This document shows positions 10,635 to 14,960 of a stretch of DNA of 15,459 nt, one piece after another. Numbering within the stretch: the first letter of the stretch is position 1; each line of letters opens with the position of its first letter. Source of the stretch: Elainellaceae cyanobacterium (lineage in GTDB: Bacteria; Cyanobacteriota; Cyanobacteriia; CAZCXK01); contig JBNPEG010000064.1 of the NCBI GenBank assembly GCA_051117555.1, positions 1 through 15,459 of the forward strand. Direction: 5' to 3'. The notes beneath the pieces are model-generated. The model searched no databases, had not been told where the DNA came from, and worked only from the letters and a program-made list of their open reading frames with translations. The position numbers and the translations under genes were made by a program.

Positions 10635-10779
10635 TCGCCTTAATAGTGTGGATTGATTGTGGATGAATTGATTTCTATTGTCTCATTAATGAAACTTCTG
10701 CCAAAATCAGTATGAACTTCGGTCACATTCGCATCGTCTGATGACGATATACGCTGGAGAAATTTCTCATGAGTCTGTT

Positions 10780-11295
10780 ATGCCACTATTAAATCGCGTT
10801 TTGCCCCCCACTGCGGTTGGGTTGCTGCTCATTCTGGCTGGATTTGCACCCTCTGCTCAAGCCCAAGATGCCGAATTCACACCTCTCCCCGAACCGACTG
10901 GGCTCTGTGTTCTCAACGAGCTTGGCGGATTATGGGTTAACAACGAAGAGGGACAGCTTGTACAGCTTGAAGATCTATGTCAACGCTTCCAGCCCCGACA
11001 GTCTGTAAATGACGACGTTGCTGTTGCTAGATTGACCGAGCTTGAAGAAGAGTTTTGGCGATCGTTTCTACGTGTCGCCAGCAGAGAGGCGATCGCCTTT
11101 GCCAATCGGGTCGACTATCAAGATGTGGTTGATTATGGCAAGACCATATGCACGTCTCTCGAAAGCGGCGATACGATGAATGACGTTCGCAAGGTACAGG
11201 TTGAAGGCGGCTTGCCACCCGCATTTGATGCAGCCGTAAATGTTGCTGCAATCAACACCTATTGTCCAGAATTTCAGTTTGAGATTGGGCGATAG
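10780..11295 (+). CDS. Secreted protein with a C-terminal DUF732-like domain
   Basis: Signal peptide (LLNRVLPPTAVGLLLILAGFAPSAQA-Q) favours the ATG at 10780 over 10741. C-terminal YGKTICTSLESG...AAINTYCPE matches the DUF732 G-x2-[IV]C-x2-L-x2-G...YCP pattern as I recall it. Confidence 0.8.
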   Translation: MPLLNRVLPPTAVGLLLILAGFAPSAQAQDAEFTPLPEPTGLCVLNELGGLWVNNEEGQLVQLEDLCQRFQPRQSVNDDVAVARLTELEEEFWRSFLRVASREAIAFANRVDYQDVVDYGKTICTSLESGDTMNDVRKVQVEGGLPPAFDAAVNVAAINTYCPEFQFEIGR

Positions 11296-11311
11296 GAGTC
11301 CCACCGGCGAT

Positions 11312-11491
11312 TCACCGATTGAAAAGCAACCGGGCGATCAGAGAGATTTGGTTTGGTTTTACAGTAACGAATTCAGTATTTTTGGGTTCGAGGGCCAACC
11401 GCAACACCAGAGACGTAAGCAGCACAATAATTAGCGGGATTCCTCGAATCAGGATGAGTTGTTTTAATTGGGTTGCAAATGTAGCGTTCAT
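11312..11491 (-). CDS. Small single-pass membrane protein (59 aa), not in the ORF track
   Basis: Translated by hand: MNATFATQLKQLILIRGIPLIIVLLTSLVLRLALEPKNTEFVTVKPNQISLIARLLFNR*. Shine-Dalgarno GAAGGAG just upstream (GAAGGAGAGGGCC-ATG); stop lies 16 bp from the convergent gene's stop. Confidence 0.7.
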   Translation of the reverse strand: MNATFATQLKQLILIRGIPLIIVLLTSLVLRLALEPKNTEFVTVKPNQISLIARLLFNR

Positions 11492-11612
11492 GGCCCTCTC
11501 CTTCTGGGATTATTGTGCTTCTCCATGAAAGGGAGTCAATAGCCCTTACAATCTTTACAATATTTTGAGGGTTCCCGGTTTTAACTCGTCCGACTATCTC
11601 ACCCAATTGGGT

Positions 11613-11644
11613 AAGAAAAATCCCCAACCCGAAGGTTAGGGGAT
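11613..11644 (-). terminator. Rho-independent terminator with C(UUCG)G tetraloop
   Basis: ATCCCC-t-AACC-TTCG-GGTT-GGGGAT followed by TTTTCTT. Confidence 0.85.
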
Positions 11645-11665
11645 GTAATCAGGGTGCATCTACCA
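11613..11665 (-). ncRNA. nsiR1: NsiR1-like small RNA (about 50 nt)
   Basis: Minus strand reads TGGTAGATGCACCCTGATTAC-ATCCCCTAACC-TTCG-GGTTGGGGAT-TTTTCTT. The 5' segment matches my recollection of the conserved NsiR1 5' end (GGUAGAUGCACC), followed by an intrinsic terminator and preceded by TCCGGA near -35. Confidence 0.75.
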
Positions 11666-11699
11666 TTTATTTATTCGGGTTAGAGGGGGTGCATCCGGA
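11666..11699 (-). promoter_or_regulatory. DIF1-type promoter (TCCGGA near -35, GAATAA -10 region)
   Basis: TCCGGA at 11694-11699, a 17-nt spacer, then GAATAAATAAAT directly before the sRNA 5' end. The DIF1 motif is the established signature of HetR-dependent promoters, including that of NsiR1. Confidence 0.65.
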
Positions 11700-11734
11700 A
11701 TAATTTGGGTACTTTTGTACGAGGCTGAGCGGCT

Positions 11735-12379
11735 GTGGATTTTTTTGTTCAGGCATATGACTATGCGATCGCCAATCTTGACCGGCTGACCTCCGCATTT
11801 GGAGAACATCTGCTGCTGGTGGTGATTCCATTGATAGTTGGATTGGTCTTGGGGCTGCCGTTGGGGGTGTTAAGCGCGCGATCGCGGATTGCATCGACTA
11901 TCTTGATCAACACGTTCAACGGGTTGCGGGTGATTCCGAGTCTGGCAATTCTCTTTGTGGCGATTCCCTATTTCGGGCTGAGCTTTCAGTCAGCGGCGAT
12001 CGCGCTCACAATTTTGGTCATGCCTCCCATATTGATTAGCACAGATGTTGCATTTCGTAATATTGATCCCATGATTCGAGAGGCAGCCGTGGGGATGGGC
12101 ATGGCTCCCAATCAAATTTTGCGATCGATTGAGATTCCGTTAGCGCTTCCCGTGGTGATTGCCGGCATCAAAACTGCAACGGTCGAAGTAATCGCCAGTG
12201 CAACGCTGGCGGCATTTATCGGGGCAGGAGGGCTAGGAGATTTTATTGTGCTCGGATTTGCCCAATACGATCCGGCGATTTTGCTGGTGGGCGCAATTCC
12301 CGTGGCATTGCTGGCATTGCTGGCAGAAATTAGCCTTGCCAGCCTCCAAAAAGCTGTTCAACCGCCTTCATCGACTTAG
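11735..12379 (+). CDS. Osmoprotectant (glycine betaine/proline/choline) ABC transporter permease, OpuCB/OsmW-like
   Basis: GTG start; RVIPSLAIL, EAA loop IREAAVGMGM, IEIPLALPVVIAG, ATLAAFIGAGGLGDFI. Confidence 0.93.
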   Translation: MDFFVQAYDYAIANLDRLTSAFGEHLLLVVIPLIVGLVLGLPLGVLSARSRIASTILINTFNGLRVIPSLAILFVAIPYFGLSFQSAAIALTILVMPPILISTDVAFRNIDPMIREAAVGMGMAPNQILRSIEIPLALPVVIAGIKTATVEVIASATLAAFIGAGGLGDFIVLGFAQYDPAILLVGAIPVALLALLAEISLASLQKAVQPPSST

Positions 12380-13059
12380 CTTCCTGATTGAACAGCCTGT
12401 CGCTGCTGTTGCCGCTGTCGCTTTAAGCTGCGCTGAATACGAGTCGTGGGGCTAGCAGCCCACTCAAGGGAAAGCAGTATGCCGTTGATGACAAACGCAA
12501 GCAGCGCAACTGCGATCGCCCCTGCCCAAATTTTGTCATATCGACCGGCTTGTGAAATTCCTTCAAACAATAACGTGCCCAAGCCGCCTGCACCAAACTT
12601 AGCGCCAATCGTGGCAATGGCGATCGCCACAATTGCAGACAACCGCAATCCGGCGAGAAACACAGGCAACACCAATGGAACCTGGATGCGCCACCAGCGC
12701 TGCCAGGGGTTCATTCCCATTCCTTTGGCTGCTTCTAGCACAGCCGGTTTAATCGACTGCAACCCGACTGACAGGTTGCGCACCAAAATCACCTGAGTGT
12801 AGAGAATCATCGCAGCAACCACTGATGAGGAACTCAGCCCAAACAGCGGCACCAAAAGGATGATCAGCGCCAAACTCGGAATGGTGTAGAGAATGCCCAA
12901 AACACCCAGAATGGGAACCGTCAGCCAGCGATAGCGCGAAATCAACAGCGAAACGGGCACTGCTACCAACACGGCGATCGCCAAGGCGAGGAGAGTCATT
13001 TGCAGGTGTTCGAGTATCAGATTCCAGATGATGGCGGGGTTATTTAGGAGATAGCTCAT
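12376..13059 (-). CDS. Osmoprotectant ABC transporter permease, OpuCB/OsmY-like
   Basis: YTIPSLAL, LEAAKGMGM, IATIGAKFGAGGLG; several TM segments. Confidence 0.93.
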   Translation of the reverse strand: MSYLLNNPAIIWNLILEHLQMTLLALAIAVLVAVPVSLLISRYRWLTVPILGVLGILYTIPSLALIILLVPLFGLSSSSVVAAMILYTQVILVRNLSVGLQSIKPAVLEAAKGMGMNPWQRWWRIQVPLVLPVFLAGLRLSAIVAIAIATIGAKFGAGGLGTLLFEGISQAGRYDKIWAGAIAVALLAFVINGILLSLEWAASPTTRIQRSLKRQRQQQRQAVQSGS

Positions 13060-13079: not shown

Positions 13080-14045
13080 CTAGTCGGCTACAGTGGCGAT
13101 CGCAGAATCTCGGATATGCTCTAGCGTGAGGACGCCGACGGTTGCTCCGTTTTCGAGCACCATGAGTTCGCGCGCACCCGTTCTCAAAATTAACGATAGG
13201 GCTTGACGTAAGTTTTGATGACGGGCGATCGTCGGCTGACCATTCTGTTGATAGGGAGGAGAAAGCTCCATCATTGCCGTTTCGACGCGCAATAACCCCA
13301 ACTGACGCACCATATCATCGGCTCCGAGCAGGTCATACACAAATGAATTAGCGGGTTGCGTGAGGATATTAAACGGCGTGTCGTACTGCACAATTTGCCC
13401 GTTTCGCATCACCAAAATTCGATCGGCGAGCTTGAGGGCTTCTTCCACGTCATGGGACACAAACAAAACCGTTTTTTTAAGCTGCCGCTGCAATCTGAGA
13501 ATTTCATCCTGGAGGCTATTGCGGGTAATCGCATCGATTGCCCCAAAGGGTTCGTCCATGAGCATCACGTCGGGATTTCCAGCTAACGCTCTGGCAAGCC
13601 CAATCCGCTGCTGCTGCCCTCCGGATAGCTGAGCCGGATAGCGATCGCGATAGTCCTGGGGAGAAAGTTCGATGAGCGTTAAGAGTTCGTCAATGCGATC
13701 GTCGATTACAGAGCGCTCCCAATTCAGCAGCTTGGGAACGACAGCAATATTCTGAGCGACTGTCATGTGGGGAAACAGCCCCGACTGCTGAATCACGTAC
13801 CCGATTTGCTGCCGCAGCCGGGTCGCTTTCATCTGACGAATATCAGTGTTGTTGATGTAAATCTTGCCAGCGGTCGGCTCGTAGAGCAGATTGACCATCT
13901 TTAGCAGCGTCGTTTTTCCGCATCCTGACGGACCCAAAATCACAACAAACTGCCTAGCTTGAATTTCGCAACTACAATTATCGACTGCTGGATGAGACGA
14001 ACCAGGAAACCGTAGGGATACACGTTCGAACCGAATATTGCTCAC
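13080..14045 (-). CDS. Osmoprotectant ABC transporter ATP-binding protein, OpuCA/OsmV-like, with a C-terminal CBS-like region
   Basis: GTG start; GPSGCGKTT, IGYVIQQSGLFPHMT, YPAQLSGGQQQR, LMDEPFGAID, VSHD. Confidence 0.95.
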   Translation of the reverse strand: MSNIRFERVSLRFPGSSHPAVDNCSCEIQARQFVVILGPSGCGKTTLLKMVNLLYEPTAGKIYINNTDIRQMKATRLRQQIGYVIQQSGLFPHMTVAQNIAVVPKLLNWERSVIDDRIDELLTLIELSPQDYRDRYPAQLSGGQQQRIGLARALAGNPDVMLMDEPFGAIDAITRNSLQDEILRLQRQLKKTVLFVSHDVEEALKLADRILVMRNGQIVQYDTPFNILTQPANSFVYDLLGADDMVRQLGLLRVETAMMELSPPYQQNGQPTIARHQNLRQALSLILRTGARELMVLENGATVGVLTLEHIRDSAIATVAD

Positions 14046-14054
14046 GATCGCCTC

Positions 14055-14960
14055 TCAACTCTCAGAGATTAACCCTTGTTCAAGCAGGAATTCTTTTGCG
14101 ACATCAGCCGGTTCGCGTTGATTGCCGCTGACCTCGTAGTTTAGCTGTCGCATGGTTTCATTGGTGAGCAGAGATGAGAGAGAATTGAGTGCATCGGCGA
14201 TCGCAGGATTGGCGTCTAATGCATCCTGACGAACAACGGGGGCAACTTGATAGGGAGGGAAAAGATTTTGATCGTCTTCTAACACAACCAGATCAAATGC
14301 GCTGATTTCTCCGTCTGTTCCAAAGGCAACGGCAACATCAGCTTCGCCATTCACAAGCCCCTCATAGCGCAGTCCTGCATCGACTGCCTTATATTCTTGC
14401 AGATCGAAGTCTCCGTATGCGTCTTTCAATCCCGGTAAGCCATCCTCCCGTTCTGCAAATTCTGGAGGACCAATCATCACCAACTGATTGGCTTGCTCGG
14501 CCATATCCGAAATCGTTTGAATACCGTAGGTTTCTGCCCCTTCCTGCGTCATGGCGAGTGCCTGCGTATTATTCATGGGAGCGGGCTCAAGCCAGACTAG
14601 GTCAAATTGCTCTTTGTAGGAACTGGATACAGTATTGTAAACCTCTTGCTGGTCGCTGCTGGGAGACATTTTCAAAACCGTGAGCAAGCCTGTCCCCGTA
14701 TATTCTGGATATAAGTCAATCTCACCACTTTGCAAGCCCGCTTGCGCAACAGGCGTACCGCCTAGGTTGAGTTTTCGCTCGACGGGCAGTCCGGCTTCTT
14801 CTAGCACAAGAGCATACATTTCGCCGATGATAAACTGCTCGGTGAAATCTTTAGATCCAACCTTGATGGCGTTGCTGTCGTTACCCGCACAACTGACAAC
14901 GATTCCGGCAGTCAGAAGGACCAGCAGCGGAAAAATAAACAGACGACGAAGCAATTTCAT
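14055..14960 (-). CDS. Osmoprotectant ABC transporter substrate-binding lipoprotein, OpuCC/OsmF-like
   Basis: Lipobox-like IVVS-C after a signal peptide; VGSKDFTEQ, IDLYPEYTGT, EFAEREDGLPGL, LEDDQNLFPPY. Confidence 0.95.
   Translation of the reverse strand: MKLLRRLFIFPLLVLLTAGIVVSCAGNDSNAIKVGSKDFTEQFIIGEMYALVLEEAGLPVERKLNLGGTPVAQAGLQSGEIDLYPEYTGTGLLTVLKMSPSSDQQEVYNTVSSSYKEQFDLVWLEPAPMNNTQALAMTQEGAETYGIQTISDMAEQANQLVMIGPPEFAEREDGLPGLKDAYGDFDLQEYKAVDAGLRYEGLVNGEADVAVAFGTDGEISAFDLVVLEDDQNLFPPYQVAPVVRQDALDANPAIADALNSLSSLLTNETMRQLNYEVSGNQREPADVAKEFLLEQGLISES

Follow-up and report, generated by a model that had tools for sequence, protein, structure and literature searches.

The stretch of DNA analysed here (the window) comprises 15,459 bases of an Elainellaceae cyanobacterium (GenBank assembly GCA_051117555.1, contig JBNPEG010000064.1), and its minus strand carries a small RNA (sRNA) gene of the NsiR1 family at positions 11613-11665. 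Read on that strand, the locus shows a TCCGGA hexamer (11699-11694), a spacer of 17 nt (N17), GAATAAATAAAT, GGTAGATGCACCCTGATTAC, a G+C-rich hairpin of 8-10 bp capped by UUCG, and a U-tract, exactly as the initial annotation of this DNA had read it. That annotation had also proposed that the RNA is NsiR1-like. The proposal is borne out by the Rfam model RF02399 (NsiR1), which matches 11665-11613 (-) over model positions 1-60 with E 3.8e-8 and 52.7 bits, the gathering score of the family being 39. NsiR1 is the sole family above its cut-off in an Rfam 15 scan of the window, and the same match was recovered by a whole-genome search with RF02399. Among 14 control genomes, this model gave no match above the cut-off.

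The predicted RNA is 53 nt long (11613-11665), with a start at 11663-11665. For a start at G11664, the DIF1-type hexamer TCCGGA (11694-11699) would occupy positions -35 to -30, and a presumed -10-like element, GAATAA (11671-11676), lies 17 nt 3' of it. This layout would set the start at about G11664, where the initial annotation had also expected it. The first 17 nucleotides of the RNA, TGGTAGATGCACCCTGA (11649-11665), include a 3-bp 5' hairpin (11653-11664) and may, by analogy with work on Nostoc (PMC9045159), serve as a pairing seed. The intrinsic terminator (11613-11644) consists of the UUCG-loop hairpin (11620-11644) and the U-tract (11613-11619); a terminator scan places the hairpin at 11641-11622. 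With RNAfold, the RNA adopts an Rfam-like fold of -15.7 kcal/mol,.(((......)))........ followed by the terminator hairpin, that is, a 3-bp 5' hairpin, a single-stranded linker and the terminator. Compared with shuffled sequences, the z-score of the fold energy is only -1.2, so that fold energy alone is not significant. The predicted RNA has the features that describe NsiR1, namely the conserved 5' part, the small 5' hairpin and the Rho-independent terminator, in 53 nt as compared with about 60. Judged by its sequence, the locus is a genuine NsiR1 gene with a DIF1-type promoter. The sequencing runs listed for window positions 10700-12400 are of soil-metagenome DNA only and cover part of this region, with no RNA run among them.

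From a G+C content near 50%, a host outside Nostocales had been suspected. The assembly (6.06 Mb, 256 contigs) indeed has 48.8% G+C. Moreover, a histidine kinase encoded in the window is 86-89% identical to Elainellaceae cyanobacterium proteins, and NCBI taxonomy places the nearest relatives, the Elainellaceae, in the order Elainellales, outside Nostocales. Members of this group grow as thin filaments and are not known to form heterocysts. The nitrogenase genes nifH and nifD are both found above their cut-offs, adjacent on contig C150. The host is most likely a nitrogen-fixing (nif-bearing) filamentous cyanobacterium that forms no heterocysts.

The genome contains seven RF02399 matches at E <= 0.001, six of them above the cut-off and one divergent. 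The six copies are spread over five contigs (C1, C48, C111, C117 twice and C189): the copy of the window is accompanied by C48:30153-30205, C111:31787-31840, C117:6197-6248, C117:5984-6037 (-) and C189:121765-121816. The two copies on C117, about 210 nt apart, form the only tandem pair. The initial annotation had described a solitary and rather short copy. The former holds within the window but not for the genome, with its six copies, including a tandem pair, and one divergent relative. The latter does not hold either, since all copies of this genome above the cut-off measure 52-54 nt. Five of the six copies carry the 17-mer TGGTAGATGCACCCTGA without change. Upstream of all six stands TCCGGA (three copies) or TCCTGA (three copies), followed by N17 and G[TA]A, the -10-like elements being GTAATA, GAATAA, GTAGTA, GTAGAA, GTAGAA and GAATCA. 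The other five copies have unrelated neighbours, including an ABC exporter gene, rlmN, yebC and hisF.

Two members of this set have features of their own. In C117:5984-6037 (-), a double change affects the otherwise invariant 5' part (TGGTAAATGTACC for TGGTAGATGCACC). With this change the 5' hairpin would gain an A-U pair, and the variant is also kept in a second genus (genome G001, L037:1501-1553). The seventh, sub-threshold relative (C201:97358-97408 (+), 31.4 bits) is flanked by gatB and ffh. Its seed is the same (AAGTAGATGCACCCTGAT), its terminator is different and, in place of the DIF1 box, it has a sigma-70-like -10 element (CATAAT/TAATAT). A palindrome, AGGGGGTGTCACCCCT, overlaps its -35 region and contains GGG-N5-CCC, the core of the HetR site as quoted in PMC7377430. 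This relative is conserved in all four family genomes, with 31-33 bits.

Conservation and association with hetR

The GTDB family was sampled with four genomes, which make up the whole GTDB order as sampled. Each of them has 6-7 copies above the cut-off, and the locus of the window has orthologs in two genera. When the four orthologous loci are aligned, the conserved block extends from the terminator to the -35 region, in which the TCCGGA hexamer is invariant, and the flanks diverge in the second genus (G001). The stems of the orthologs are preserved by paired changes (CCCCUAACC/GGUUGGGG, CCCCUGACC/GGUUGGGG and CCCCGGCAC/GUGUCGGGG). A conserved block limited to the region from -35 to the terminator is the footprint expected of a selected, self-contained unit.

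At a larger scale, 151 Cyanobacteriia genomes, each at least 90% complete, were searched. NsiR1 is found above the Rfam cut-off in 83 of them, belonging to 54 of 84 genera, and within most GTDB families of the sample its presence is all-or-none. The rarity that the initial annotation implied for such an RNA is not observed. The hetR family is present in 82 of the same genomes. Both NsiR1 and hetR occur in 81 genomes, NsiR1 only in two, hetR only in one and neither in 67, counts to be read as a pattern rather than as a statistical test, because the sampled genomes are related and the count overstates their independence, which weakens the argument that can be built on it. The suggestion, made from the single locus, of an ancestral module linking HetR, DIF1 and an sRNA fits this near-perfect co-occurrence.

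A scan for the exact 17-mer, with one genome per species, gave at least 124 stretches, of which 80 loci were listed. Among the listed loci are heterocystous genera, with tandem arrays (Nostoc, Calothrix, Tolypothrix, Rhizonema and Atlanticothrix), and a wide set of non-heterocystous taxa: Drouetiella, Crinalium, Symploca, Stenomitos, Allocoleopsis, Microcoleus vaginatus, Leptothoe, Alkalinema, Coleofasciculus, Microseira, Phormidesmis, Spirulina, Geitlerinema, Thainema, Vacuolonema and Chamaesiphon. Metagenome-assembled genomes (MAGs) of Leptolyngbyaceae, Oculatellaceae and Pseudanabaenaceae are also listed, and the scan found orthologs of NsiR1 copies in Elainellaceae cyanobacterium records. 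Two of the 80 listed loci are non-cyanobacterial (Ginsengibacter and Clostridia), some chance matches being expected at this database size. Selecting loci by an exact 17-mer biases any statement that the seed is invariant; the Rfam matches of the family and of the 151-genome sample show the same conserved 5' end.

The promoter was surveyed in 131 copies with at least 60 nt upstream, as the motif TCC[GTC]G[AGT] starting 36-34 nt before TGGTAG. The motif stands at this fixed distance in 43 of 44 loci titled with heterocystous genera and in all 85 other cyanobacterial loci (58 TCCGGA, 20 TCCTGA, 3 TCCCGA, 3 TCCGGG and 1 TCCGGT), the latter group not being purely non-heterocystous, as it includes MAGs and one Plectonema record with Calothrix-like copies. 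Neither of the two non-cyanobacterial chance matches has it. Similarly, a hairpin of -8 kcal/mol or lower followed by T4 is found in 91 of 93 unique copies of the second group, whose hairpins amount to 90 distinct sequences. Of the heterocystous copies, 42 of 44 have it, and neither chance match does. The recurrence of the same architecture across cyanobacterial copies indicates that the transcription unit is more than chance.

These data bear on whether the copies might be decaying or selfish promoter-terminator repeats, spread through the genome and devoid of regulatory function. Such an origin would account for a multi-copy element dispersed over varied intergenic contexts, for which no conserved target was detected. 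It would, however, leave unexplained why many cyanobacterial families have one and the same 5' 17-mer and why terminator stems vary by paired changes, as well as the positional orthologs in two genera. In addition, NsiR1 function has been demonstrated in Nostoc (PMC9045159). We regard this explanation as very improbable. An invariant 5' 17-mer, combined with 90 distinct terminator hairpins among 91 unique copies, rather appears to argue for purifying selection.

The DIF1-type promoter and the HetR circuit

HetZ is reported to be a sigma factor, whose region 4 recognises T-35 C-34 C-33 G-32 G-31 A-30, formerly called the DIF1 motif, in promoters with a spacer of 16-17 bp to the -10 element and with T-35, G-32 and A-30 replaceable (PMC13342950). 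The TCCTGA and TCCCGA variants fit this replaceability. The minimal DIF1 promoters of Anabaena read TCCGGA-N17-GTAGAG (patS) and TCCGGA-N17-GTAGGT (hetR) in the oligonucleotides of PMC7377430 (S1 Table). The window copy, TCCGGA-N17-GAATAA, fits the sigma-HetZ/DIF1 layout, with a partial match at -10 (G-A-A as against G-T-A).

Do other genes of the host carry promoters of this type? The genome has a hetR gene on contig C248 (PF03574 at 269 bits; equivalog NF009718 at 598.8 bits, for a cut-off of 489), with TCCGGA-N17-GTAAAT 217 nt upstream of it. Two PatX-like open reading frames (ORFs), not adjacent to hetR, were also found. The first, of 67 aa (C201:134856-135059 (-)), has a hydrophobic N-terminus and HRGSGR near the C-terminus, and is preceded by TCCGGA-N17-GTAAAA. 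The second, of 55 aa (C252:2763-2930 (-)), has a hydrophobic N-terminus and a C-terminal HRGSGRR, and is preceded by TCCTGA-N18-GTATTC. If a HetR-PatX circuit is defined by hetR together with a small secreted-type protein ending in RG(S/T)GR, this genome has one. The same layout at hetR and at the PatX-like ORFs implies that the core of the HetR circuit and the sRNA genes have one promoter type in common. A DIF1 promoter has likewise been predicted upstream of patX-hetR in Leptolyngbya BL0902 (PMC11298460).

Genome-wide, TCCGGA-N17-G[TA]A occurs at 42 sites, 18 of them intergenic, as compared with four for the pattern written backwards. The two hexamers, both palindromes, differ in frequency, which makes this control a poor match. 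Individual DIF1 sites, and not an enrichment of the 42-site count, are used as evidence here.

The HetF-like gene of the host encodes a CHAT protein of 953 aa on C139. It scores 805 bits with NF045509, below the equivalog cut-off of 1200, and over the 395 residues of its N-terminal part it shares 61% identity with the protein that is the HetF equivalog in a Nostocaceae-like genome. Contig C139 has no NsiR1 match; the initial annotation was right that no hetF lies near the sRNA, and hetR, a HetF-like gene and nifH/nifD, which it had proposed to look for, are all found in the genome.

The genes hetR, hetZ and patU3 are described as widespread in non-heterocystous filamentous strains, or as specific to filamentous strains (PMC12669612; PMC2821919), and hetZ is expected in the present genome on the basis of these reports. 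Several candidates for it were considered and rejected. A 502-aa protein encoded upstream of a DUF1822 gene occurs in only 43 of the 151 genomes, including members of hetR-negative families. The ECF-like sigma proteins of about 400 aa paired with DUF1822 in the Nostocaceae-like genome G104 occur in 46 of the 151, again including hetR-negative families, and gave no tblastn match in this genome at E 1e-5. A 401-aa Cas6-like protein with a weak sigma-4 match is present in one hetR-negative genome and missing from two hetR-positive ones. Searches of PDB sequences with two hetZ candidates gave no match, and two primer-derived probes from PMC7377430 matched no cyanobacterial record.

This genome has four DUF1822 genes. 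Three belong to triads of short ECF-like sigma, DUF1822 and CHAT-CHASE2 genes (C13:10262-14270, C106:31756-35933 and C21:163-4251). In the fourth cluster (C13:35428-40754), a 502-aa protein of no family replaces the sigma factor. The components of these clusters are patchy in cyanobacteria (43-46 of 151 genomes), and their distribution does not follow hetR.

The genome was also searched for GAGGGG-N5-CCCCTC, which we take to be a HetR-box-like pattern. It has one such site (C54:43305-43321), and the Nostocaceae-like genome G104 has none. The site is part of a perfect 21-bp palindrome, ATGAGGGGTTTGACCCCTCAT (C54:43301-43325), which presumably resembles a HetR recognition site and is flanked by a 122-aa ORF and a TPR protein gene; neither of these two genes gave a family match.

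It could be that the sRNA is a real member of the NsiR1 family that escapes HetR and HetZ, another sigma factor reading TCCGGA, and that it has a general nitrogen-stress or housekeeping role unrelated to patterning. The failure to find hetZ with the queries used would fit this idea, as would TCCTGA instead of TCCGGA in three of the six copies, the sigma-70-like promoter of the seventh relative, which has the same seed, and the two sampled genomes that have NsiR1 and no hetR match. Moreover, the NsiR1-like RNA of Limnospira responded to gamma radiation (PMC8400943). Nevertheless, NsiR1 and hetR agree in 148 of the 151 sampled genomes, the same promoter type is present at hetR and at the PatX-like genes of this host, G-32 is reported replaceable for sigma-HetZ (PMC13342950), and hetZ is reported in the core gene set of filamentous species (PMC12669612; PMC2821919). 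Independence from HetR and HetZ is thus considered unlikely.

Candidate targets and the divergent permease gene

NsiR1 of Nostoc represses hetF in antisense, as well as alr3234, a hetP-like gene, at its start codon (PMC9045159). Possible targets in the present genome were scanned with the first 24 nt of the sRNA against the -120 to +45 regions of 5691 ORFs, taken from a greedy ORF set rather than from a gene caller. The duplex energies over these 5691 5' regions have a mean of -14.3 and a standard deviation of 2.9 kcal/mol. The 5' region of hetR ranks 1677th. The best site in trans, at -28 to -7 of a 64-aa ORF (C218:5326-5520), has -28.6 kcal/mol.

The sRNA is divergent from an ABC permease gene (BPD_transp_1, Pfam 3.6e-21; 11735-12379 (+)) of an OpuA/OpuB-like transporter cluster; the start of this gene is 70 nt from that of the sRNA. 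A divergent permease neighbour at 66-70 nt is found in all four family genomes. This arrangement raises the question of an action in cis: a permease mRNA starting upstream of 11613 would have a leader fully complementary to the sRNA, which would then be antisense to it, as NsiR1.1 is to the 5' untranslated region of hetF in Nostoc (PMC9045159). The conservation of the arrangement speaks for this possibility, and the self-antisense duplex is, trivially, the best of the target scan (-44.6 kcal/mol). A sigma-70-like site on the plus strand (ATGAAA-16-TACAAT, 9/12; 11525-11552) could provide the start. However, this promoter is a consensus match only, two such sites being found where 0.5 are expected in the region, and the second genus (G001) does not conserve the sequence of this site. 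Next to the other five copies stand genes unrelated to the permease, such as rlmN, yebC, hisF and the ABC exporter gene, and the conserved part of the RNA is common to all copies, which argues for common targets in trans. A cis-acting role of the window copy is therefore quite improbable.

Two further features of the neighbourhood may be recorded. The BPD_transp_1 permease genes at 11735-12379 (+) and 12376-13059 (-), both of one transporter type, converge with an overlap of 4 nt, and one of them faces the remaining OpuAC/ATPase/permease cluster (13080-14960 (-)). Such a convergent layout is unusual for an operon of this kind, and is retained in all four family genomes. On the other side, about 120 nt downstream of the NsiR1 terminator and on the same strand, a 59-aa ORF (11312-11491 (-)) combines a good Shine-Dalgarno sequence, AAGGAGAGGG, with a hydrophobic core. 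It overlaps a longer frame of 84 aa, and a sigma-70-like site is present at 11539-11512.

NsiR1 in a filament probably without heterocysts

Taking these data together, it appears fairly probable that window positions 11613-11665 (-) encode a functional NsiR1-family member, one of six dispersed siblings in a potential diazotroph of the Elainellaceae type, filamentous and non-heterocystous, acting as a seed-pairing sRNA under the control of sigma-HetZ and HetR. The data above show the family membership, the number of copies, the promoter architecture with its conservation, the positional orthology and the co-occurrence with hetR. Each copy has the make-up of a transcription unit of its own, with a DIF1-type promoter (TCCGGA or TCCTGA, N17, G[TA]A), an RNA of about 53 nt and an intrinsic terminator. 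For the sigma factor at work, for what induces the RNA, and for which mRNAs it regulates and in which direction, we infer the following scheme. The promoter would be read by a HetZ-type sigma factor under HetR control, an assignment suggested by the promoters of this type at hetR and at both PatX-like genes of the host. The RNA would accumulate on activation of the HetR-PatX circuit, probably under nitrogen stress and possibly in some cells only. Its invariant single-stranded 5' part would pair with target mRNAs and lower their translation, as NsiR1 does in Nostoc with hetF and alr3234.

A number of observations weigh against this scheme. The -10 element of the window copy, GAATAA, departs from the GTAG of the tested Anabaena promoters. 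One of the PatX-like ORFs scores 14.9 bits with the NCBIfam PatX model, for a cut-off of 30, and the other gives no match. The gene hetZ was not located in this genome by indirect routes, with no HetZ sequence or model as a query, so that the sigma factor is assumed. The co-occurrence of NsiR1 and hetR has exceptions: genomes G010 and G014 have 2-3 NsiR1 matches and no PF03574 match, and genome G053 has two hetR-family matches and no NsiR1 under stricter filters. The link to hetF known from Nostoc was not recovered in the duplex scan, where the 5' region of the HetF-like gene ranks 2202nd of 5691 with -14.8 kcal/mol. No hetP-like gene was identified, although no dedicated hetP search was made. 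Finally, the 64-aa ORF on C218, the one candidate whose conservation as a target was checked, was rejected: it is not found in genomes G002 (same genus, 99% complete) or G003, and the alignment with G001 stops at the site.

How does this gene compare with the NsiR1 of Nostoc (Anabaena) sp. PCC 7120? Both have GGTAGATGCACCCTGAT as their 5' sequence and are made up of a small hairpin at the 5' end, a linker and an intrinsic terminator. Both also have a DIF1 box, TCCGGA, at -35, and come as several sibling copies that differ slightly from one another. The copy of the window, with 53 nt, is shorter than the RNA of PCC 7120 (about 60 nt). PCC 7120 has 12 tandem copies, whereas those of the present genome are distributed over five contigs, with one tandem pair only, and no copy adjoins or is antisense to hetF. 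The tandem array upstream of hetF, not found here, is a trait of the Nostoc locus and not of the RNA model. The targets hetF and alr3234 were not recovered here. The host lies outside Nostocales, and heterocyst-specific expression cannot apply as such. A similar comparison holds for the promoter: the sigma-HetZ promoters of Anabaena 7120 (patS, patX, hetR and nsiR1) also combine TCCGGA at -35, a 17-nt spacer and a -10 element of the G[TA]A type, but recognition by HetZ has been shown in Anabaena alone, and the -10 element is GAATAA here instead of GTAG. In their organisation, the copies also resemble the multicopy 'sibling' sRNAs of other bacteria cited in PMC9045159, which are near-identical, share a seed, diverge in their 3' parts and have their own promoter and terminator.

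Reviews present NsiR1 as an RNA of heterocyst formers. In Nostoc, no marker of the future heterocyst is known to appear earlier (PMC4030482), a 70-nt promoter being sufficient for cell-specific expression, and NsiR1 is bound by the RNA-binding protein PatR (PMC11797042). Contrary to the novelty that the initial annotation implied, homologs outside heterocyst formers are already in print. Supplementary file 6 (row 202) of PMC4734099, dated 2016, marks 38 genomes as having NsiR1 homologs and gives a further count of 27, which is the number of heterocystous columns. Non-heterocystous plus signs stand there for Trichodesmium IMS101, Arthrospira PCC 8005, Oscillatoria PCC 7112, 6506 and 6304 and Microcoleus FGP-2, and five further plus signs in later columns are not safely assignable to strains. 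A 57-nt NsiR1-like RNA, 'RNA162', was reported in Limnospira indica PCC 8005 (PMC8400943). These homologs belong to the same RNA family and, as here, to filamentous, hetR-bearing, non-heterocystous hosts. In the parts concerned, the two sources give presence only, without promoters, copy number or a link to hetR, and the Elainellaceae-type lineage is not in the table of PMC4734099 as given in that file. In the titles, abstracts and text passages covered by a literature search, which did not extend to all supplements, no discussion was found of NsiR1-hetR co-occurrence or of a conserved promoter outside heterocyst formers.

The observation made in the initial annotation is confirmed and its interpretation partly supported; its core idea is right. 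The circuit containing this sRNA is most likely older than heterocysts. The role of the HetR-circuit genes (hetR, hetZ, patU3 and patX) in non-heterocystous filaments has been called 'a mystery' (PMC11298460) or said to 'remain unknown' (PMC12669612). A bolder proposal, possible though doubtful, is that NsiR1 is not a heterocyst RNA but an original output of a pre-heterocyst activator-inhibitor circuit made of HetR, PatX and perhaps HetZ. In diazotrophic filaments that lack heterocysts, of which this would be one, nitrogen stress would switch on the six DIF1-driven copies in some cells, spaced along the filament. The copies would mark, or help to set, a cell state that has not been seen so far, such as that of cells fixing nitrogen transiently or of cells destined for breakage of the filament. 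If so, the nsiR1 promoter would be a ready reporter of hidden patterning in 'undifferentiated' cyanobacteria. Taken by itself, the locus has modest value, since it adds a further member to a known family, and the supplementary table of 2016 already let the wider pattern be seen. That NsiR1 follows hetR rather than heterocysts is nevertheless a real and useful finding, partly in print. As the same RNA and promoter type follow hetR through most filamentous lineages, they offer a compact and testable handle on whether filaments without heterocysts are patterned too.

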